Origin: an uncultured Ruminococcus sp.
GTDB lineage: Bacteria; Bacillota; Clostridia; Oscillospirales; Acutalibacteraceae
Reading direction: 5' to 3'
Assembly: GCA_964646975.1 (NCBI GenBank)
Contig: CAZYGJ010000013.1
Span: 2,466-66,465, forward strand
Length of the DNA: 64,000 nt
Part shown: positions 139 through 56,002 of the stretch, piece after piece
How positions within the stretch are numbered: the first letter of the stretch is position 1
Layout of the letters: each line of letters opens with the position of its first letter
The notes under the pieces: generated by a model
Database searches by the model: none
The model's input: only the letters and a program-made list of their open reading frames with translations
Told to the model about the DNA's origin: nothing
Made by a program: the position numbers and the translations under genes

Positions 139-1419
139 TTATTTTCCGATAATCTCCTTGCCGCCCATATAAGGTCTGAGAGCTTCGGGGATTCTCACAG
201 TTCCGTCGGCGTTGAGGTTGTTTTCGAGGAACGCAATCAACATTCTCGGCGGAGCAACAACGGTGTTGTTAAGGGTGTGTGCAAAATACTTGCCGTCCTT
301 GCCCGAAACTCTGATTTTGAGTCTGCGAGCCTGAGCGTCACCCAGATTTGAGCAAGAGCCAACCTCAAAATACTTTTTCTGACGAGGTGACCACGCCTCA
401 ACATCAAGCGAACGGGTTTTGAGGTCTGCCAAGTCGCCCGAACAGCACTCAAGCGTTCTGACGGGAATGTCGAGTGAGCGGAACAGGTCAACTGTGTTTT
501 TCCAGAGCTTTTCAAACCACATTTTGCTTTCTTCGGGCTTGCAAACAACAATCATTTCCTGCTTTTCAAACTGGTGGATTCTGTAAACGCCACGCTCCTC
601 AATGCCGTGGGCACCCTTTTCCTTGCGGAAGCACGGCGAATAGCTTGTGAGGGTGTAGGGCAGGCTTTCTTCCTTGTTGATTGTGTCGATAAACTTGCCA
701 ATCATCGAATGTTCGCTTGTGCCGATAAGGTAAAGGTCCTCGCCCTCGATTTTGTACATCATCGAATCCATTTCGGCAAAGCTCATAACGCCTGTTACAA
801 CGTTGCTTCTTATCATAAACGGCGGAACGCAGTAGGTAAAGCCTCGGTCAATCATAAAATCACGGGCATATGAAATCACAGCACTGTGCAGTCTTGCGAT
901 GTCGCCCATAAGATAGTAAAATCCGTTGCCTGCCACCTTGCGAGCGGAATCAAGGTCGATTCCGTTGAGCTTTTCCATAATCTCCGTGTGATACGGAATC
1001 TCAAAATCAGGCACAATCGGCTCGCCAAAGCGTTCAAGCTCAACGTTTTTGCTGTCGTTTTCGCCCAAAGGAACGCACGGGTCGATAATCTGGGGAATCT
1101 GCATCATTACCTGAGTCAATTCTTCGCTCATCTCGGCTTCTTTTGCTTCAAGGTCTGCAAGCTCGTTTGCCTGCTTTACAACCTCTGCTTTCAGCTCCAT
1201 TGCCTCGTCCTTTTTACCCTGAGCCATCAACGCACCGATTTGCTTTGAGAGCTTGTTGCGGTTTGAACGCAGCTCGTCAGCCTGCTGTTTTACGGCACGA
1301 CCCTTTATGTCAAGCTCCATAGCTCTGTCAACAAGCGGCAGCTTGCTGTCTTGGTACTTTTTCTTGATGTTTTCCTTTACTGCAACGGGATGCTCCCTCA
1401 AAAATTTTATGTCAATCAT
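139..1419 (-). CDS. serS: Seryl-tRNA synthetase
   Basis: 426 aa ORF; N-terminal coiled coil, class II motifs (FRKEKGAHG..RGVYRIHQFEKQE, EVGSCSN, HTLNNT). Confidence 0.97.
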   Translation of the reverse strand: MIDIKFLREHPVAVKENIKKKYQDSKLPLVDRAMELDIKGRAVKQQADELRSNRNKLSKQIGALMAQGKKDEAMELKAEVVKQANELADLEAKEAEMSEELTQVMMQIPQIIDPCVPLGENDSKNVELERFGEPIVPDFEIPYHTEIMEKLNGIDLDSARKVAGNGFYYLMGDIARLHSAVISYARDFMIDRGFTYCVPPFMIRSNVVTGVMSFAEMDSMMYKIEGEDLYLIGTSEHSMIGKFIDTINKEESLPYTLTSYSPCFRKEKGAHGIEERGVYRIHQFEKQEMIVVCKPEESKMWFEKLWKNTVDLFRSLDIPVRTLECCSGDLADLKTRSLDVEAWSPRQKKYFEVGSCSNLGDAQARRLKIRVSGKDGKYFAHTLNNTVVAPPRMLIAFLENNLNADGTVRIPEALRPYMGGKEIIGK

Positions 1420-1438
1420 TGTTTTCTCCTCTTTTCTT

Positions 1439-2290
1439 TTATTTGAGCTTGTTTGAAAGCTCGGTCAATTCCTCGTCGGAATAAAATTCAATCTGTAAAA
1501 CGCCGCCCTTTTTGCCCTTGCTTTTGGTTATGCTAATCTTTCTGCCAAGGCTTTCGTTGAGGGCAAGCTCAACCATACTGTAAAACGACGGCTTTTTCTC
1601 AGGCTTTTCTTCAACAGGCTGTTTCGGCTTTGCCTTGCACAGCTTTTCTGTTTGGCGAACGGACAAATCCTTTTGAACAATCAGCTCTGCAAGCTCCAGC
1701 ATAGCTTTTTCGCTTTCAAGCGAAAGCAACGCTCTTGCGTGACCTGCCGAGATTTTGCCGTCCTTCAGATATTCGGCTACGCTGTCGGGCAGATTTAAAA
1801 GTCTGAGTGCGTTTGCAACGGCAGGACGTGATTTGCCCACAGATTGTGCAACCTCGTCTTGAGTAAAGCCGTGTTCGTTCATCAGCACGTTATAGCCCAA
1901 CGCTTCTTCAAGCGGAGTTAAATCCTCACGCTGGAGGTTTTCGATGAGAGCAAGCTCCATTGTTTCGGTGTCGCCCAGCTCCTTGATGATTACGGGGACT
2001 TCCTTAAGCCCTGCCATTCTGCAAGCTCTGTATCGTCTTTCGCCTGCCACGATTTGGTAGCCGCCGAGTGTGAGCGGACGCACCAAAAGCGGCTGCAAAA
2101 GTCCGTGCTTTGAAATGCTTTCGGCAAGCTCCGAAAGTGCCTTTTCGTCAAATTCTTTTCTCGGCTGACCTCGGTTTGGCTCAATTTCGGCAATGTCAAG
2201 TGTGACCGTGCCGTTGCTTTCTTCGTTTTCGTTTTCGATAAAAATAGCACCCAAGCCTTTGCCCAGACCGCCTAATTTTTTCGCCATCAA
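1439..2290 (-). CDS. parB: ParB/Spo0J chromosome partitioning protein
   Basis: GLGKGLGA N-terminus, QPRK, GLLQPLLVR, AGERRYRA, ENLQREDL motifs; directly downstream of parA. Confidence 0.95.
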   Translation of the reverse strand: MMAKKLGGLGKGLGAIFIENENEESNGTVTLDIAEIEPNRGQPRKEFDEKALSELAESISKHGLLQPLLVRPLTLGGYQIVAGERRYRACRMAGLKEVPVIIKELGDTETMELALIENLQREDLTPLEEALGYNVLMNEHGFTQDEVAQSVGKSRPAVANALRLLNLPDSVAEYLKDGKISAGHARALLSLESEKAMLELAELIVQKDLSVRQTEKLCKAKPKQPVEEKPEKKPSFYSMVELALNESLGRKISITKSKGKKGGVLQIEFYSDEELTELSNKLK

Positions 2291-39999: not shown

Positions 40000-40075
40000 G
40001 CTGATATAGCTCAGGAGGTAGAGTGCGTCCTTGGTAAGGACGAGGTCACGGGTTCAAATCCCGTTATCAGCTCCA
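40000..40075 (+). tRNA. tRNA-Thr(GGT), integration site (attL)
   Basis: 76 nt cloverleaf, anticodon loop TT-GGT-AA, CCA; promoter TTGAAA-17-TATGAT at 39934-39962. Confidence 0.96.
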
Positions 40076-40242
40076 AGGTGAAAACCGCATTGGAAAGCCG
40101 TTTTTAGGTATTATCCCGTGTGGTTTTTCTTTTTCTTTAAAGGAATTATAGGGTGATTTGCTGTTTATTTGACGTTTATTGTCGCTCTGATTTACTTTTA
40201 TTTACTTCAAATCACAAAAAGATAGAGGTATACAGCCTTGTT

Positions 40243-41430
40243 TTATGCTCTTTTTCGATTGGTGTTTAAAATTGCTTCAAAGGTGTTTGCGGCTTCCTTT
40301 TCGGCTTGTTCTACTGCGTGCACATAACGGTTGGTAGTTTTTAACTGAGTGTGACCAAGTCTTGTGGCAACGTTTTTGATGTTTGTTCCGTTGCTTAGTA
40401 AAAGCGTTGCCGAGGTATGCCGCAAAGCGTGGAATTTTTTGTGTTCCAATCCGTTACGCTTTAGAAATTTGCTAAACCATTGTGTGGGCGTTGTCGGGTA
40501 CATAGGCTTTCCGTCTGCTTGCGTAAATATCCAATTATCGCCGCTCCAACGGTCACCGAGCAACAGTTGATATTGTGCTTGCTCTGCCTTGAATTGTTTG
40601 AGCATGGTGAGCATATACGGCGGCAACATTATAGCCCTGCTTTTGCCTGTTTTTGGGGATTTGCTTTTTATCTCTGTTTCGCCTGTCAGCTTGTAATTAC
40701 TGCGGCATACACTTAAAATGCCTGTTTTATAGTTTACATCTTCCCATTTTAATCCCACAAGCTCACCACGGCGGCAACCTGTGTTTAATGCAAGGTGTAT
40801 CAATAATTTATATTGCAACGGCTCATTTTCTAAGCAGTCAAGAAGCTTTGCAAGCTCATCATCTGTGAATATTTCCGTTGTTTGTTCTTCAAGTTTCGGC
40901 AGGGTTATACGGTCGCTGTCGGCAGGGTTTATGCCTATTAAGCCGAGCTTGTAGGCACTGTGTAATATTGATTGCAACATTGTATAATATCTGCGTACCG
41001 TTGAGCTTGACAGCTTGCCGCTCGTTCCGTCAAGGTGTGTGTCACGTTCTTCAAGTGCATTTACAAATTTTTGTATGTGTATGGGTTTGATGTCTTTGAG
41101 CTTCATATGTCCGAGCATTGGGATAATGCAGATATTAAGCATACGGTTGTATTTTTCAAAAACCACGGGTGAAAGCCTGTGCTTTGCGTTTTCAAGGTAT
41201 ACAGGCACATAATCAGCTAATTTCATTCTGCCGTCAGCGGCGGCAGCTCCGTTGTTGCATTGTTCCTCAAACAACACCGCCTGCCGCTGTACTTCCTTTT
41301 CAATCTGTCTTGCGGTCATATTAGGCTCTGGCGTATAGGTCATTGTGCGGCGTATCTGTTTACCGTTTAGGTCATAGCCGCAGGAAACCGTTATTTGATA
41401 ACTGCTTTTGCGTTTACGAATTGTTGCCAT
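40243..41430 (-). CDS. int: Tyrosine recombinase/integrase
   Basis: TGCRRGE, FHALRH, LGH..TTNRYVH; N-terminal arm-binding domain. Confidence 0.95.
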   Translation of the reverse strand: MATIRKRKSSYQITVSCGYDLNGKQIRRTMTYTPEPNMTARQIEKEVQRQAVLFEEQCNNGAAAADGRMKLADYVPVYLENAKHRLSPVVFEKYNRMLNICIIPMLGHMKLKDIKPIHIQKFVNALEERDTHLDGTSGKLSSSTVRRYYTMLQSILHSAYKLGLIGINPADSDRITLPKLEEQTTEIFTDDELAKLLDCLENEPLQYKLLIHLALNTGCRRGELVGLKWEDVNYKTGILSVCRSNYKLTGETEIKSKSPKTGKSRAIMLPPYMLTMLKQFKAEQAQYQLLLGDRWSGDNWIFTQADGKPMYPTTPTQWFSKFLKRNGLEHKKFHALRHTSATLLLSNGTNIKNVATRLGHTQLKTTNRYVHAVEQAEKEAANTFEAILNTNRKRA

Positions 41431-42187
41431 TGCTTTCACCTGCACTTTTTATAATTATATCATCCATCAATATTAGTTTTTCTTTTACTGTTTTTTCTTT
41501 TTCTTCAATTTCGTTTAGCTTATCACTTGCAAATGATTTAAACGCTTCTTTAAAATCATCAGTAATGAGGTGTCGGTTAATTCTGATATTTTTTCTTATC
41601 TCACTTGTTTTTGTATAAAAAGTTAAATACTGTTGTGTTAAGTGAGGAACATCTACTTCATTTATGTCAAAGTCAATAATCTGATTATACAATGCAATAC
41701 AACATTCTATATTCCTATAATAATCATACAAGACAGAGCCTTGCTCATTAAAAACAGGGTTATATTTAGAGGATAAAAAACCGTTTATAAACGTCAAATC
41801 AAGTTCGGCATTTTGAGAATTTTTGCCGCTTATTATTAATGATATTTTTTCTGCTTTTGCGTTGTTTTTATTCGCTTTTATTTTTTGAATATAGTGTAAT
41901 CTTTTGACCGATTTTTCATCAAGTCCTGTGTATGAACAAATTAATTGCAGATTTTCATTTGTTGTGGCAACATCAGATAAACCAAGTAAATAGTCTGTTG
42001 TTGTGTTATAATGAGTGGCAATAATAACTAAATGTTCTAAATTCGGCACTCTTGCCCCGTTCTCATAGTAAGAAATTATTTGCCTTTTAACTTTAAGTAA
42101 CGCTGCTAATTCTTCTTGTGTTTCCGTTTTTGCTTCCCTTAATTTTCGTATCCTGTCACCTGTTTTGATTTTGCTGATTTTCGACAT
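41414..42187 (-). CDS. XRE-family HTH repressor
   Basis: RIRKLRE..TQEELAALL..ISYYENG..P; AAGGAG SD before ATG 42187. Confidence 0.88.
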   Translation of the reverse strand: MSKISKIKTGDRIRKLREAKTETQEELAALLKVKRQIISYYENGARVPNLEHLVIIATHYNTTTDYLLGLSDVATTNENLQLICSYTGLDEKSVKRLHYIQKIKANKNNAKAEKISLIISGKNSQNAELDLTFINGFLSSKYNPVFNEQGSVLYDYYRNIECCIALYNQIIDFDINEVDVPHLTQQYLTFYTKTSEIRKNIRINRHLITDDFKEAFKSFASDKLNEIEEKEKTVKEKLILMDDIIIKSAGESNGNNS

Positions 42188-42330
42188 TTTCAAACTCCTT
42201 TGCAACATATGTGTTGCAATTAATTAATTATGCAACAAAACTGTTGACTTGTTGATGTTGTTACCTTATAATATTAGTGTAACAGTTGAATAATTCATTG
42301 TCAACAATTTTATGAAAGGAAGAATAAACT

Positions 42331-42519
42331 ATGGTAACAAACAAAGAAATCAGAAAAGCGGCAACAGAAAGGGGCGTGTTCCTGTGGGAAATTGCTGATA
42401 CTCTCGGAATATATGACAGCTCATTCAGTCGCAAACTGCGGAAAGAGCTTCCGAGAGCGGAAAAACAGAGAATATTGCAAATCATTGATGAAATTGCAGA
42501 CAGAAAAAATAAGAGTTGA
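42331..42519 (+). CDS. Small Cro-like HTH protein
   Basis: LWEIADTLGI..SFSRKLRKEL; promoter TTGACT-17-TATAAT at 42244-42272, divergent from the repressor. Confidence 0.75.
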   Translation: MVTNKEIRKAATERGVFLWEIADTLGIYDSSFSRKLRKELPRAEKQRILQIIDEIADRKNKS

Positions 42520-42641
42520 TAAAAGAAAACTGCCGCTCTGACATCAACCTATCAGAGCGGCAAAGAAAAAAAGATATACAGCCTAATATTATTATAACAT
42601 ATTATTATGGGCTGTAAAGATATATACGAAAGGAAATTTAT

Positions 42642-42920
42642 ATGAAAAACATTCAATTAATATCAGAACAGCCGACACTTCCCCGTATGAGAACAGTTGC
42701 GGAAGCGACAGCAGAAATAAAAGCGGCAGACCCCAACACGGGTGTCACGGAGTATCATATACGACAGCTTGCAATATCGGGAGTTTTGCCGAGGGTAAAA
42801 GCAGGAAGAAAAATGCTGATAAACCTTGATGTGCTTATTGAATACTTACAAGACCCGACAGCAGAAAAATTCAAGGTTCGCAACGCCGCTGCGAATAACG
42901 GTATCAAAAGAATTGTGTGA
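42642..42920 (+). CDS. Excisionase-like DNA-binding protein
   Basis: MRTVAEA..IRQL..LPRVKAGRKMLINLD, MerR/HTH_17-like pattern. Confidence 0.75.
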   Translation: MKNIQLISEQPTLPRMRTVAEATAEIKAADPNTGVTEYHIRQLAISGVLPRVKAGRKMLINLDVLIEYLQDPTAEKFKVRNAAANNGIKRIV

Positions 42921-42933
42921 GGCGGCGGAACAA

Positions 42934-43305
42934 ATGGCAAAGTCAAAACCAACACCTTTTAAACCGTGGGAAACAACAAAAACAAACGGCATTGAACTGC
43001 GATATATAAGAATGGGTGTTACTCAAATGTCGCACCCTGCAACAAAATCTCTTTCACATTCAGCGTTTAGAGTTTATGAATATATGAAAATCGAAAGTGG
43101 CGGACACAAAGAGTTTGAATACCCGTACTCAAAATTTAAAACAATCATTTCAAAAAAAGGTTTTCAAAGTGCAGTTGCTGAACTTGTAGAAAAAGGATTT
43201 ATTGTAATTGTTGAAAAAAACAAAAATTTGCGGCTTCCCAATAAATACGCTTTTTCCGATGGTTGGAAAGAGTTTAGCCTTAGAAGTGAAAACCCTTTTA
43301 TTTAA
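42934..43305 (+). CDS. Winged-helix protein, possible replication initiator
   Basis: LSHSAFRVY..FQSAVAELVEKGFI pattern; followed by palindromic direct repeats. Confidence 0.5.
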   Translation: MAKSKPTPFKPWETTKTNGIELRYIRMGVTQMSHPATKSLSHSAFRVYEYMKIESGGHKEFEYPYSKFKTIISKKGFQSAVAELVEKGFIVIVEKNKNLRLPNKYAFSDGWKEFSLRSENPFI

Positions 43306-43333
43306 AAGAATATATGGCTATATATAGAATATC

Positions 43334-43472
43334 TGACTACTACGAAGTCAAGCAAGATTTGAATTTATGTGCAATGCTTGACTACTACAAAGTCAAGGTA
43401 ATAAGAAAATAATAAATATCTTGACTACTACGAAGTCAAGGCATCGGGTTTGCTTGACTACTACAAAGTCAG
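43334..43472 (+). repeat. Four iteron-like palindromic repeats
   Basis: TGACTACTAC(G/A)AAGTCA at 43334, 43379, 43422, 43455. Confidence 0.85.
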
Positions 43473-43648
43473 CAAAACAAACTATTGCCTAATTCTATAC
43501 AACTCTATACAAGCAACATTAAACGCCCCGTACCAACCGATTTCGGTTGATATGAGGCGTTTATTTCTTATGCACCATTTGCACCCCTGCGTGATGGTTT
43601 CCGCTCTGCCTTGTTGCAGCAAGATAGAGCGGCTTTATAAGATTGTAA

Positions 43649-43888
43649 TTATCGGCAGCTCCTCTTTTTTGCTCGTTCTTCTCTTATACCTTGTATTCTG
43701 CCTGTGTCATACATAAAAGAAAGCACCTTAAAAAAGTCCCATAGTATATCCTTGTCTACTGCTTTGGTTGCTCTGTATGCAACGTACAATAATTTTACCC
43801 TGTGTATTTCCTCTATTTTCATGTAATTGCTGAGAGCTAAAGCCTCCTGCGGTTCTATTAATGCAGATGGCAAGTGTTTTCCGTTCAT
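43649..43888 (-). CDS. Hypothetical protein
   Basis: 79 aa ORF with AAGGAG SD, ends YDTGRIQGIREERAKKR. Confidence 0.5.
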   Translation of the reverse strand: MNGKHLPSALIEPQEALALSNYMKIEEIHRVKLLYVAYRATKAVDKDILWDFFKVLSFMYDTGRIQGIREERAKKRSCR

Positions 43889-44039
43889 AAATTCTACTCC
43901 TTTAAATTGATTTTTCAGAGCGGCAAGGTTATGCTCTGATATAAGCGAGGTTTATTAACATCGGAATAATGTTGGAAAATGTTGGAGATTAGGCATTAAG
44001 TGTGTACATTGTTTTCACTCCCTTTCAGTTAGTGTGGAT

Positions 44040-44471
44040 TTACACCTTCAATTCAATTTCTAATCCGTAATTCATAAAGGATTGAAACATTCCTTTAACT
44101 TCACGGAAACGGCTTGTAATTGTCTTTCCGCTGTCAATCAACGGAGCTACAAAAGCCGCCAAAGTCTTTGGAAGATAGCCCATAGTATAAGCCCCTTTGT
44201 TTCTGACTGTTGCAATTACCGCTACTGCGTTGCTGTCATAACAGTTTGAGTGGTCACGATACAGGCTTATTTTTATATCCTCGGAGCGGTAGTGCGTTAA
44301 GTTTTCAATGGCCTTTTGGCGTTTGCCGTAGGTCACGCCCGAAACCTTTGTTGATACACTTTGCATTTTGACGAGTACCCACGCTTTAACCATTGCATTA
44401 GCTCTGTTGTAACCCTGCTTTACAAGTTGGTTTGCTATTGTCATTACTTTGCTATGTGCTGTGCGTTTCAT
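44040..44471 (-). CDS. HIRAN-domain protein
   Basis: KVSGVTY..RQ..L.R..N.YDSNAVAV..GYLP. Confidence 0.82.
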   Translation of the reverse strand: MKRTAHSKVMTIANQLVKQGYNRANAMVKAWVLVKMQSVSTKVSGVTYGKRQKAIENLTHYRSEDIKISLYRDHSNCYDSNAVAVIATVRNKGAYTMGYLPKTLAAFVAPLIDSGKTITSRFREVKGMFQSFMNYGLEIELKV

Positions 44472-44664
44472 CTGTAACGCCCCTTTCCTTAACTCTGTAA
44501 CTATATTGTATCATAGTTAGTACATTAATGCAATAGTCGAAGTGTACAAACTTTGATACAAAACTTTGTTTATATTTGTACTTGCGTTAATACATAACTT
44601 GTGCTATAATTTGTATAGTGGAAAAGATGACTTATATAAAAACAGTCCCGAAAGGAGTGTAAAA

Positions 44665-44889
44665 ATGGCAATTTCAATGCTGAAAGTAAAAGATATTATG
44701 GATAAAAAGGGGCTTAAAAAGTTTGATTTACGAAAAGCGGGATTTAATCCAAATATAGTAGATAAAATATTATCAGGTCATTTAAGCAAGCAAAAAAGAG
44801 TTGATACTGAAACCATTAACCGCCTTTGTGAATATCTCGAATGCCAACCCGGGGACATAATGGAATATGTGGAAGATACGGCGAAATAA
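44665..44889 (+). CDS. Cro/C1-type HTH (YozG/DUF739-like)
   Basis: KVKDIMDKKGL..ETINRLCEYLECQPGDIMEY. Confidence 0.82.
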   Translation: MAISMLKVKDIMDKKGLKKFDLRKAGFNPNIVDKILSGHLSKQKRVDTETINRLCEYLECQPGDIMEYVEDTAK

Positions 44890-44909
44890 GATTGAAAGGC
44901 TATTAAATA

Positions 44910-45284
44910 ATGCGTACAGATGTTGAAAAGCTCGGAATTATCGGAAAGGATATTGTAAAAAAATTTAATTTGACAATTTCGCCCGATACACCTATTTTTA
45001 TAGGCTTAAACAACAGAATACATATGGAAAATAACCACGGTGAAATTTACCGACAATATTCCGATTGCTTGGGAGAAATAATAAAATCACCCGATTATGT
45101 GGGAGTAAATCCGCACGATAATTCATTGGAGTATTATAAAATATACGGAAATGTAACGTTGCATATAAAACTTGCCGTACGTCCAACAAAGGGTGGTGTT
45201 TACTTTGCTAAAACTATGTATGACATAAACGAACACAGCTTAAAAAGCTATTTAGAAAAGGGCAGAGTTAAGGCGGTAAACTAA
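44910..45284 (+). CDS. Stand-alone PBECR2/PBECR3-like nuclease (Barnase/EndoU/ColE5-D/RelE fold)
   Basis: RIHM..H..EIIKSPDYVGVNP..SLEYYK..KLAVR..YFAKTMY pattern, recognised by eye without an HMM. Confidence 0.65.
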   Translation: MRTDVEKLGIIGKDIVKKFNLTISPDTPIFIGLNNRIHMENNHGEIYRQYSDCLGEIIKSPDYVGVNPHDNSLEYYKIYGNVTLHIKLAVRPTKGGVYFAKTMYDINEHSLKSYLEKGRVKAVN

Positions 45285-45292
45285 AATTGTTG

Positions 45293-45321
45293 TTGACAAA
45301 ACGTGCTTTATACTGTATAAT
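45293..45321 (+). promoter_or_regulatory. Consensus sigma-A promoter with no downstream ORF
   Basis: TTGACA (45293-45298)-17 bp-TATAAT (45316-45321). Confidence 0.85.
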
Positions 45322-45327
45322 TTAAAT

Positions 45328-45477
45328 ACAGAAAACATAAATTATAGTGTATGCTTTTGAGGACGGAACGGGCAGCCGTAGCCCCTCGCAAGAGGTTAGG
45401 AGATGTGGGAGTGTCGCCCCACCAAAAACATACACACAACAGGCAAGCTCTGAAATATGAGCTTGCCTTTTCTTTTT
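45328..45477 (+). ncRNA. Candidate ~145 nt four-way-junction small RNA
   Basis: Closing stem 45347-45359 / 45423-45435, three inner hairpins including a GCAA tetraloop; terminator AGGCAAGCTC/GAGCTTGCCT plus T tract at 45441-45477. Confidence 0.65.
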
Positions 45478-45909
45478 GCTTGCGACAGCTAAATCACCGC
45501 ATTGAGTGAAGCTGTGAAGATAATATTTTTATGTTGTGCCGCTCTAAATGCCAAAACAATAAATAAAATGCCGCTCTTTTCCTTATATACGCCCTGTGTG
45601 GGGTTTTTACGGCTTTGAAAGGTAAACACCTGTGGCTTTTAAAATAAAAGCAACAAAAACGAAATACAGCGATATTTTAAAACGCAGTACAGAGTAAAAT
45701 AATCTGTCAGAGCGGCAACACAAAATAAGATGTTTTCAAGTCTTAAAAATCCGCACAATTCACGACAAAAATTTGATGTTTATTTGACGTTTGTTTCTGC
45801 AATAAACAGCAAATAATTATTACGGTTCGCAAAGGGTAAACCCTTAAAAATCGCATAAACAAGCCGTTTATCGACATCTATAAAAATCCACAAAACCACA
45901 AAAAACACG

Positions 45910-45955
45910 TTGGTAAGGACGAGGTCACGGGTTCAAATCCCGTTATCAGCTCCAA
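45910..45955 (+). other. attR (3' half of tRNA-Thr)
   Basis: Identical to 40031-40076. Confidence 0.93.
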
Positions 45956-46206
45956 AACAAAAGCCACCCAAAGGGTGGTTTTTTTGGCAAAGCGATAGGG
46001 ATTTGAAAGGGCGACAAGAAAACAGTTCGGTGAACTGTTTTCCGCCCGTCGCGATGATGAACGGAAATTGATTGCACACACCGCAACAGACGAGATGAAG
46101 TTTTGCAAAGCAGAACAAAGTTATCAGCTCCAAAACAAAAGCCACCCAAAGGGTGGTTTTTTTGGCAAAGCGATAGGGATTTGAAAGGGCGACAAGAAAA
46201 CAGTTC
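45942..46206 (+). repeat. 87 bp direct repeat (period 178 bp) starting with the tRNA 3' end
   Basis: 45942-46028 = 46120-46206; contains a GCCACCC/GGGTGGT hairpin and an inverted T-arm copy GGGATTTGAA. Confidence 0.88.
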
Positions 46207-55841: not shown

Positions 55842-56002
55842 AAAACGCCCATCGTCAGACGGGCGTTATTGCTGATATTATGCCCATCATTCAAGCATTA
55901 CCACCTTTCCGTTCGGCAGGTTGGTGTGCGGTCAACGAGCTTGTCTCTCACGCACTCTTTATAGGTTAATTATATTTTACCGCCGAATTGTGAAAATGTC
56001 AA
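55842..56002 (-). promoter_or_regulatory. Promoter plus structured leader/attenuator (or remnant small-RNA locus)
   Basis: TTGACA-17-TAAAAT at 55974-56002; hairpins; terminator AACGCCC/GGGCGTT plus T tract. Confidence 0.5.

Follow-up and report, generated by a model that had tools for sequence, protein, structure and literature searches.

A gene for a predicted endoribonuclease of the PBECR3 family and, directly behind it, a gene for a structured skipping-rope RNA are the last cargo of a 5.9-kb integrative element in the DNA analysed here, a 64,000-nt stretch of a contig from an uncultured Ruminococcus sp. (CAZYGJ010000013.1; the whole stretch is called the window below). Skipping-rope is a conserved, complex-looking bacterial RNA whose function has stayed unexplained since 2017, and the pair in the window is a new instance of this known orphan family together with its associated gene. 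New here are the identification of the partner as a solo PBECR3 nuclease, linkage statistics taken from both the protein and the RNA side, a promoter contrast between RNAs with a neighbouring nuclease (paired) and those without one (solo), and a pseudoknot within the RNA. We propose, at a probability of about 0.45, that the nuclease gene and the RNA gene together make up a type III-like toxin/RNA-antitoxin module, possibly one of abortive infection. We rank this reading first because the linkage runs one way, the promoter is tied to the nuclease, no protein partner is conserved and the RNA has no antisense potential.

The nuclease and the skipping-rope RNA

The 124-aa product of the nuclease gene (coordinates of all features are in Table 1) matches PBECR3 over residues 13–110 (E 3.1e-17; 63 bits against a cut-off of 30) and PBECR2 more weakly. 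This bears out the PBECR assignment of a preliminary description of the window, which had been made from the letters and their open reading frames (ORFs) and had proposed a check of the domain by profile. The Pfam scan found no similarity of the protein to DUF3800 at E <= 1, and a search of PDB sequences with the nuclease family profile returned chance-level matches only. In the AF2 model (pLDDT 89), four strands come after a pair of helices, and its fold matches in BFVD are phage MuF-C and polyvalent-protein 'Nuclease' domains (TMq 0.6–0.75). Homolog alignments reveal three conserved residues: H38 in the first long helix (33–42; at least 90% conserved), R91 (K in one subfamily) and T102 in the strand 98–106, a position that is Thr or Ser in all aligned subfamilies. 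H38 and T102 agree with the His and Thr/Ser that make up the active site of the PBECR families (Iyer et al. 2017, PMC5512222). Among solved structures, the best matches are 7m5f (CdiA-CT, contact-dependent inhibition) and the RNase toxin BrnT (3u97). From its sequence and modelled fold, we predict that the protein is a BECR-fold endoribonuclease. It shares its predicted fold class, the His and Thr/Ser layout and these best, weak PDB matches with the BECR-fold toxins (colicin D/ImmD, colicin E5/ImmE5, CdiA-CT/CdiI and BrnT/BrnA), and it is likewise predicted to need a neutralising partner. Unlike in those systems, no immunity protein is conserved beside it and its invariant neighbour is an RNA.

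That RNA belongs to an already catalogued family. An Rfam scan matched positions 45352–45430 to RF02924 over the full model (positions 1–80 of 80; 62.7 bits against a gathering score of 36.7; E 3.6e-14), and a gathering search of the whole window recovered the same match. The preliminary description, which had suggested running the RNA against Rfam, had missed both this identity and the published association with a protein. The window RNA is a full-length member with the four stems, the conserved nucleotides, the 3′ intrinsic terminator and the specific protein gene nearby, and it shows no structural difference from the family. As far as its main text goes, the study that described the motif (Weinberg et al. 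2017, NAR, PMC5737381) reports a "compelling association" of this orphan RNA with a nearby protein, judges the RNAs improbable riboswitches, found no self-cleavage, and names neither the associated protein nor a function. In the searchable literature we found no functional follow-up on skipping-rope after 2017; one paper notes the motif among non-coding RNAs of phage sequence fragments used in host prediction.

The stems P1 to P4 that had been drawn from the letters alone as a four-way junction are those of the Rfam consensus and of the minimum-free-energy fold (−49.9 kcal/mol, z = −3.74, equalled by 0 of 200 shuffles). Skipping-rope RNAs from viral contigs were gathered by a core pattern and 73 were aligned (alignment A3); a covariance model, R1, was built, with which 101 RNAs, 95 of them distinct, were aligned (alignment A8). 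Across these 95 RNAs, 85.5% of cells are paired (64.4% in shuffles), and the covariation score is 0.53, compared with 0.17 when shuffled and 0.09–0.13 in slid controls; the structure for which the preliminary description had advised a covariation test beside homologous nucleases is thus conserved. P1, P2 and P4 covary, with the observed score reached by 0 of 500 shuffles, and the base pairs of P2 and P4 swap freely among A-U, U-A, G-C and C-G, while P3 is variable and missing from about ten members. The invariant core GAG..GGAA..GG..CC..GAGATG is present in the window RNA.

The loops of P2 and P4 are joined by a covarying pseudoknot: in 95 of 95 sequences, three P2-loop bases, GG[C/U], pair with three P4-loop bases, [G/A][C/U]C. 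The middle-to-inner pair is C-G in 64 sequences, U-A in 27 and U-G in 4, with 0 mismatches. In the window the pairs are G45371-C45415, G45372-U45414 and C45373-G45413, plus A45374-U45412.

The RNA had been called tRNA-shaped. This holds for its helix connectivity, which is like that of the cloverleaf: a closing stem leads through a 2-nt linker into an arm with an invariant loop GG, then through a 1-nt linker into a variable third arm, a 4-nt linker into a 5-bp arm and, with 0 nt between, back to the closing stem; the loop of this 5-bp arm is the pairing partner of the GG. It does not hold for tRNA-finding tools, as ARAGORN and the Rfam tRNA model are blind to the RNA. Unlike in tRNA, the third arm is tetraloop-capped and dispensable, there is no CCA end, and the loop-loop contact is a 3–4-bp Watson-Crick helix instead of a T-loop/D-loop elbow. 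We treat the likeness as resemblance only. Identity as a tRNA or tmRNA was rejected: ARAGORN places no gene at 45340–45440, and the Rfam tRNA clan gives no match there at E <= 10.

The RNA gene is predicted to be an independently promoted unit. Its own sigma-70 promoter stands between the nuclease stop and the RNA and is the perfect TTGACA-17-TATAAT element of the preliminary description, beginning 8 nt past the stop, where that description had counted 9. The strong terminator reported there was also recovered, and it is kept in the closest relatives. The nuclease gene ends 60 nt before the RNA core. Short mechanical ORFs (37 and 52 aa) run across the RNA; compensatory changes, and indels whose lengths are not multiples of three, speak against a coding role. 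Homologous RNA cores and whole loci occur in metatranscriptome assemblies, as assembled contigs that give neither transcript ends nor relative expression. A riboswitch or leader was ruled out by the terminator, by the lack of a downstream gene that it would serve and by the varying neighbours.

Linkage between the nuclease and RNA genes

Protein-first loci were chosen by the nuclease alone, with the RNA ignored in selection. Close homologs of the nuclease (63–87% identical) led to five genome loci, all five with the RNA ~70–80 nt downstream. For two more distant subfamilies, whose alignments served as queries, R1 found the RNA directly downstream on the same strand in 69 of 69 loci with sequence past the gene, and eight further nuclease clusters, reached by profile search and contig look-ups, had it downstream in 15 of 15 and 9 of 9 loci, including a Streptococcus relative of the phage record Javan254. 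Javan254 itself (L115) and loci L129 and L171 are not informative, their sequences stopping at the nuclease stop codon. These sets add up to 98 informative loci, and in all 98 the RNA follows the nuclease directly on the same strand; nuclease identity to the window protein goes down to about 21–40%, and a nuclease without the RNA was not met in any of them. The preliminary description would have abandoned its proposal had the structure been lacking beside homologous nucleases; it was present beside every one. In one extra locus, L192, a run of N (~2377–2440) stands exactly where otherwise identical contigs have a skipping-rope RNA, which reflects masked or unassembled sequence and not absence.

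The settings of these loci are prophages, small integrative elements and ordinary chromosomal neighbourhoods, with chromosomal examples of the pair between an AraC regulator and an SNF2 helicase and beside argininosuccinate synthase. Streptococcus suis prophages have the pair with the nuclease annotated 'spbA', the homolog's name in Streptococcus phage records, for which a literature search found no papers. Genes upstream of the nuclease vary among loci (lysin, integrase, transposase, AraC-type regulator and others). No neighbour other than the RNA is conserved, save a HIRAN gene and a small ORF that recur in one distant lineage: the order HIRAN/small ORF/PBECR3/RNA is found again in L190–L193 (HIRAN 1071–1493, minus strand), where the nuclease is only 38% identical.

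In the window, a small helix-turn-helix (HTH) gene of the HTH_26 family lies 20 nt upstream of the nuclease gene on the same strand and is probably co-transcribed with it. This position, and the fact that Xre-type HTH antitoxins are common, would suit a type II toxin-antitoxin system in which the HTH_26 protein (44665–44889) neutralises the nuclease and the RNA has no part in neutralisation. Among about 50 distinct loci, however, only the window and its closest relative, L001, have an HTH_26 homolog upstream of the nuclease gene, and elsewhere other genes take its place. HTH_26 as a general antitoxin partner is thereby ruled out; the protein is a local regulator and not a conserved partner of the module, and we consider a type II arrangement highly improbable. 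The preliminary description had likewise seen no immunity ORF adjacent to the nuclease, apart from this HTH gene.

Seen from the RNA side, the linkage is looser. On viral contigs with at least 600 nt on both sides of the RNA, a nuclease stands beside 20 of 50 distinct RNAs and is absent beside 30; on general metagenome contigs it stands beside 23 of 44 and is absent beside 21. Where the two are paired, the nuclease nearly always ends 18–91 nt upstream on the same strand. Two loci (L070 and L102) have a convergent arrangement, and these few agree with the 'either orientation and side' given for the motif in the text of Weinberg et al. (PMC5737381).

Solo RNAs lie in accessory regions, with integrases, lysins, a Panacea-domain gene, a PemK-like gene, an Abi_2 fragment, DUF3644 with a restriction-endonuclease-like domain and a Gp49/HigB-like pair as neighbours. 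A cluster of homologous ORFs lies upstream of solo RNAs in seven loci (L006, L032, L050, L082, L085, L101 and L111), and its member in L006 matches the Panacea domain (SocA_Panacea/DUF4065); the PemK/MazF-like gene is in L066, the Abi_2 fragment in L069 and the Gp49/HigB-like pair in Javan99. Because Panacea, PemK/MazF-like, Abi_2 and Gp49/HigB-like genes adjoin them, solo RNAs sit in toxin-antitoxin and defence islands. Annotated solo RNAs occur in the S. mitis phage MissC (between autolysin and integrase), the Streptococcus satellite Javan99 and the 107-kb Enterocloster phage CB473P3. By eye, we also noted that a TnpB-like (IS200/IS605 OrfB) or IscB-like RRXRR-HNH gene ends ~220 nt upstream of the solo RNAs in L015, L050, L072, L101 and L062; these are probably insertion sequences that landed beside the RNA.

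Two further cases show the RNA without the nuclease. A gut metatranscriptome contig (run X22), ~94–96% identical to the window over the aligned flanks (44842–44956 and 45333–45627), has a 376-nt deletion (44957–45332) that takes the nuclease ORF from codon 16 on together with the RNA promoter, leaving the first 47 nt of the ORF, the whole RNA and the terminator. In L020, a 6.4-kb contig, a window-type RNA stands straight behind a small upstream ORF and there is no nuclease.

Half of the RNAs being without a nuclease, in such varied accessory regions, would fit two independent neighbours, a free-standing regulatory small RNA of mobile elements that acts on transcripts or proteins of host or phage, and PBECR3 as a linked accessory gene; that the window RNA has its own promoter and terminator would fit as well. 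Hitch-hiking is not expected to keep the two together in 98 of 98 loci, with distance and orientation fixed, in subfamilies only ~21–40% identical and in unrelated contexts, nor to yield the matching of subtypes described below. We judge independent neighbours improbable.

Paired and solo RNAs differ in their promoters. Of 32 distinct paired loci, 31 have a promoter that matches at least 9 of 12 consensus positions, mostly 11–12, in the gap between the nuclease stop codon and the RNA. In the RNA-first set, promoters with at least 10 of 12 matches precede 23 of 26 paired RNAs versus 3 of 36 solo RNAs (background 4.5%), and a crude terminator scan after the RNA was positive for 19 of 26 paired versus 12 of 36 solo RNAs. 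The promoter contrast therefore indicates that a dedicated strong promoter accompanies the presence of the nuclease.

The same promoter bears on whether the RNA could be a cis-acting 3′ element or an antisense regulator, one that would act on the nuclease mRNA by stabilisation, termination or base-pairing. The RNA lies immediately 3′ of the nuclease gene, and solo copies often stand directly behind other genes without a promoter, as such a role would have it. Yet a conserved consensus promoter separates gene and RNA, convergent arrangements exist, and the conserved junction and pseudoknot go far beyond a terminator's needs. Pairing of the RNA with the nuclease translation start shows no excess over shuffled sequence (−23.3 versus a shuffled mean of −26.4 kcal/mol). 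As the RNA has no special complementarity to this site, we favour protein binding over antisense control and give a cis-acting or antisense role very little credence.

The P2 loop, the J3/4 linker and the P4 loop divide the RNAs into subtypes that correspond to the subfamilies of the nuclease. Nucleases of the 'AVR...T/S' type stand beside RNAs with AAC-nGGCAG loops and (A/U)GGAGAU linkers, those of the 'GIK...ST' type beside RNAs with AAA-UGG(U/C)UC loops and CUGAGAU linkers, and N-terminally extended nucleases beside RNAs with AAGAGAU linkers. Where this correspondence fails, in a few cases, the RNA is a second, additional copy within the same locus. Tandem skipping-rope RNAs were seen in L146, L148, L149, L159 (2900–2994 and 3067–3162), in L130 (2922–3017 and 3029–3125) and in L234, L278 and L292; in tandem loci the second RNA's subtype differs from that of the copy matching the adjacent nuclease.

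That the RNA subtype follows the protein subfamily is also what a working ribonucleoprotein, or an enzyme with a dedicated substrate or cofactor RNA, would give, in which PBECR3 processes, loads or stabilises the RNA, the complex performs a task such as recognition or cleavage of a target RNA, and the nuclease is no toxin. Such a pair predicts the same asymmetry, with a protein that always needs the RNA and an RNA that works alone or with host factors. The high conservation of unpaired nucleotides and pseudoknot fits the 'sophisticated biochemical function' spoken of in the text of Weinberg et al. (PMC5737381), and some PBECR domains have been suggested to act by RNA binding (Iyer et al., PMC5512222). 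The alignment, however, contains no variable guide-like single-stranded segment, loss of the dedicated promoter in solo RNAs would be odd for an autonomous effector, and the protein keeps the catalytic residues of toxin-type BECR RNases. We regard a ribonucleoprotein pair of this kind as the main rival of the toxin/RNA-antitoxin reading and as rather unlikely.

Fit to a proposed toxin/RNA-antitoxin module

Informative loci with the nuclease always have the RNA, loci with the RNA often lack the nuclease, and the promoter goes with the nuclease; this is the pattern to be expected of a toxin and its antidote. In such a module, the nuclease would be a metal-independent BECR-fold endoribonuclease that damages cellular RNA. 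The RNA, a compact and pseudoknotted four-way junction, would be supplied in excess by its own near-consensus promoter, would bind the nuclease directly and would keep it inactive. The preliminary description had likewise suggested an antitoxin or decoy role for the RNA. If RNA synthesis stopped, through loss of the element or shut-off of host transcription by a phage, the nuclease would be released. Solo RNAs in phages and other elements may be leftover or acquired antidotes that protect against related nucleases. We also count in favour of a toxin/RNA-antitoxin module the X22 element, which lost the nuclease and kept the RNA, the convergent loci, the second RNA copies of a different subtype, the matching of RNA subtypes to nuclease subfamilies, the conserved predicted catalytic His and Thr/Ser and the best solved-structure matches, 7m5f and BrnT.

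Known type III systems (ToxIN, CptIN, TenpIN; AbiQ/antiQ) have an antitoxin of tandem repeats upstream of the toxin gene, with a terminator between, which is processed by the toxin; their toxins are of the ToxN/AbiQ, CptN and TenpN families. The PBECR3/skipping-rope pair shares with them an endoribonuclease-type protein with a non-coding RNA gene and carriage on mobile elements, and we propose that it also shares the 'RNA in excess' expression logic and RNA copies without a toxin. It differs in its single ~95-nt pseudoknotted four-way-junction RNA, which lies downstream and has its own promoter, and in its BECR protein fold, which is not ToxN/AbiQ-like (Pfam gives PBECR3 and PBECR2 only). No ToxI-like tandem repeats occur in 44000–45770. 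With no repeats, the opposite gene order and a different toxin fold, the pair falls outside the known type III families.

Phages can encode pseudo-antitoxins, such as the pseudo-ToxI of phage phiTE. The phage genomes MissC, Javan99 and CB473P3 similarly hold a solo RNA without the nuclease, and by analogy phage solo RNAs could neutralise a host-borne nuclease. In contrast to pseudo-ToxI, solo skipping-rope copies are equally common in general metagenome contigs. A wider proposal, which we put forward tentatively, is that such pairs constitute a widespread, unrecognised class of toxin/RNA-antitoxin (abortive-infection) module on Firmicutes mobile elements, in which a single pseudoknotted RNA of tRNA-like topology would directly inhibit a BECR-fold RNase and phages or rival elements would carry promoter-less antidote copies.

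Several points weigh against a toxin/RNA-antitoxin module. To our knowledge, its architecture is unlike that of every known type III system. About half of the skipping-rope RNAs have no nuclease, for which a simple pair model must account, and solo RNAs, mostly without a recognisable promoter, score as high as paired ones; because half are solo and score equally, the RNA may have a function of its own. Toxicity, RNase activity and RNA-protein binding of the pair are predictions from sequence. The matches to solved toxin structures are weak (E 0.04–0.12, TM 0.4–0.6), and a PADLOC scan of the nuclease gave no hit. The matching of subtypes could be explained by co-inheritance alone. The samples also have their leanings: protein-first loci centre on subfamilies first met beside the RNA, and RNA-first samples were drawn by an exact-core pattern to which decayed RNAs are invisible. 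Finally, PBECR domains have been proposed as offensive phage effectors rather than addiction toxins (PMC5512222).

An invariant partner that is predicted to be a BECR-fold RNase, one-way dependence and a dedicated promoter on paired copies turn the orphan motif into a concrete experiment. Were the toxin/RNA-antitoxin reading true, the pair would represent a type III-like family whose architecture and RNA fold are both new, and it would have a bearing on conflicts of phages with hosts, and of elements with one another, in gut Clostridia and streptococci. The same logic might then extend to related orphan RNA-protein pairs, the drum and DUF3800-I to -XI motifs, which are likewise orphan structured RNAs with terminators, each linked to one nearby protein family, though the RNAs and the proteins are others; a possible relationship of DUF3800/drum with skipping-rope-associated genes was raised in the text of Weinberg et al. 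2017 (PMC5737381). If the toxin idea is wrong, the tight linkage still indicates a specific RNA-protein complex worth solving.

The host element and its surroundings

The element that carries the module is inserted at the 3′ end of a tRNA-Thr(GGT) gene and has no structural or virion genes. Its cargo also includes the small HTH gene and a 79-aa ORF (Table 1). The element resembles a satellite or a small integrative mobilisable element. Close relatives carry the labels Ruminococcus and Acutalibacteraceae, and the sequencing runs that contain the sequence are gut metagenomes.

Table 1. Features of the nuclease/RNA module and its host element in the window.
Feature	Position	Strand	Details
PBECR3-family predicted endoribonuclease, solo domain, 124 aa	44910–45284	+	Pfam PF18812
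Sigma-70 promoter of RNA gene	45293–45321	+	−35 TTGACA 45293–45298, 17-nt spacer, −10 TATAAT 45316–45321; 12/12 consensus matches
Predicted primary transcript, skipping-rope small RNA, ~150 nt	45328–45478	+	5′ end inferred from promoter, 3′ end from terminator
Skipping-rope RNA core, four-way junction P1–P4 with loop-loop pseudoknot	45344–45439	+	own covariance model 87.8 bits; RF02924; P1 45347–45353/45429–45435 and 45355–45359/45423–45427; P2 45363–45379; P3 45384–45395; P4 45405–45422
Intrinsic terminator of RNA gene	45441–45478	+	10-bp stem (6 GC pairs) 45441–45468, then T-run TTTTCTTTTT
Small Cro/C1-type HTH gene, 74 aa from ATG 44665	44665–44889	+	Pfam HTH_26, E 2.9e-14
5.9-kb integrative element carrying the module	40031–45955	.	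perfect 46-bp direct repeat of tRNA-Thr(GGT) 3′ end: attL 40031–40076, attR 45910–45955
tRNA-Thr(GGT)	40000–40075		insertion site of the element
Tyrosine integrase	40243–41445	−	
CI-like repressor	41414–42208	−	
Xis-like HTH_17 gene	42642–42920		
Rep-like ORF	42826–43305		
Four 21-nt direct repeats	43330–43471		consensus TGCTTGACTACTACAAAGTCA, spaced 33–45 nt, directly after Rep-like ORF
HIRAN-domain gene	44040–44471	−	divergent from HTH-nuclease operon

The four 21-nt repeats behind the Rep-like ORF resemble replication-origin iterons. In PADLOC, the HIRAN protein weakly matches the candidate system PDC-M03B.

Further repeats were observed at the element's ends and between its genes. A 25-nt repeat near both ends (40156–40180 and 45771–45795) may be an arm-type integrase site, and the motif CAGAGCGGCAA, which recurs in three intergenic regions (42546–42570, 43903–43926 and 45695–45725), may be a regulator site. 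A direct repeat of 87 nt, perfect in both copies (45942–46028 and 46120–46206), comprises the last 14 nt of the tRNA, its terminator and ~50 nt more. The attachment site is thus present a third time in part, and the repeat may be a scar left by an earlier tandem insertion or excision. Farther along the window, an ordinary SAM riboswitch (RF00162, 50.5 bits; 55881–55967, minus strand) is unrelated to the nuclease/RNA module.

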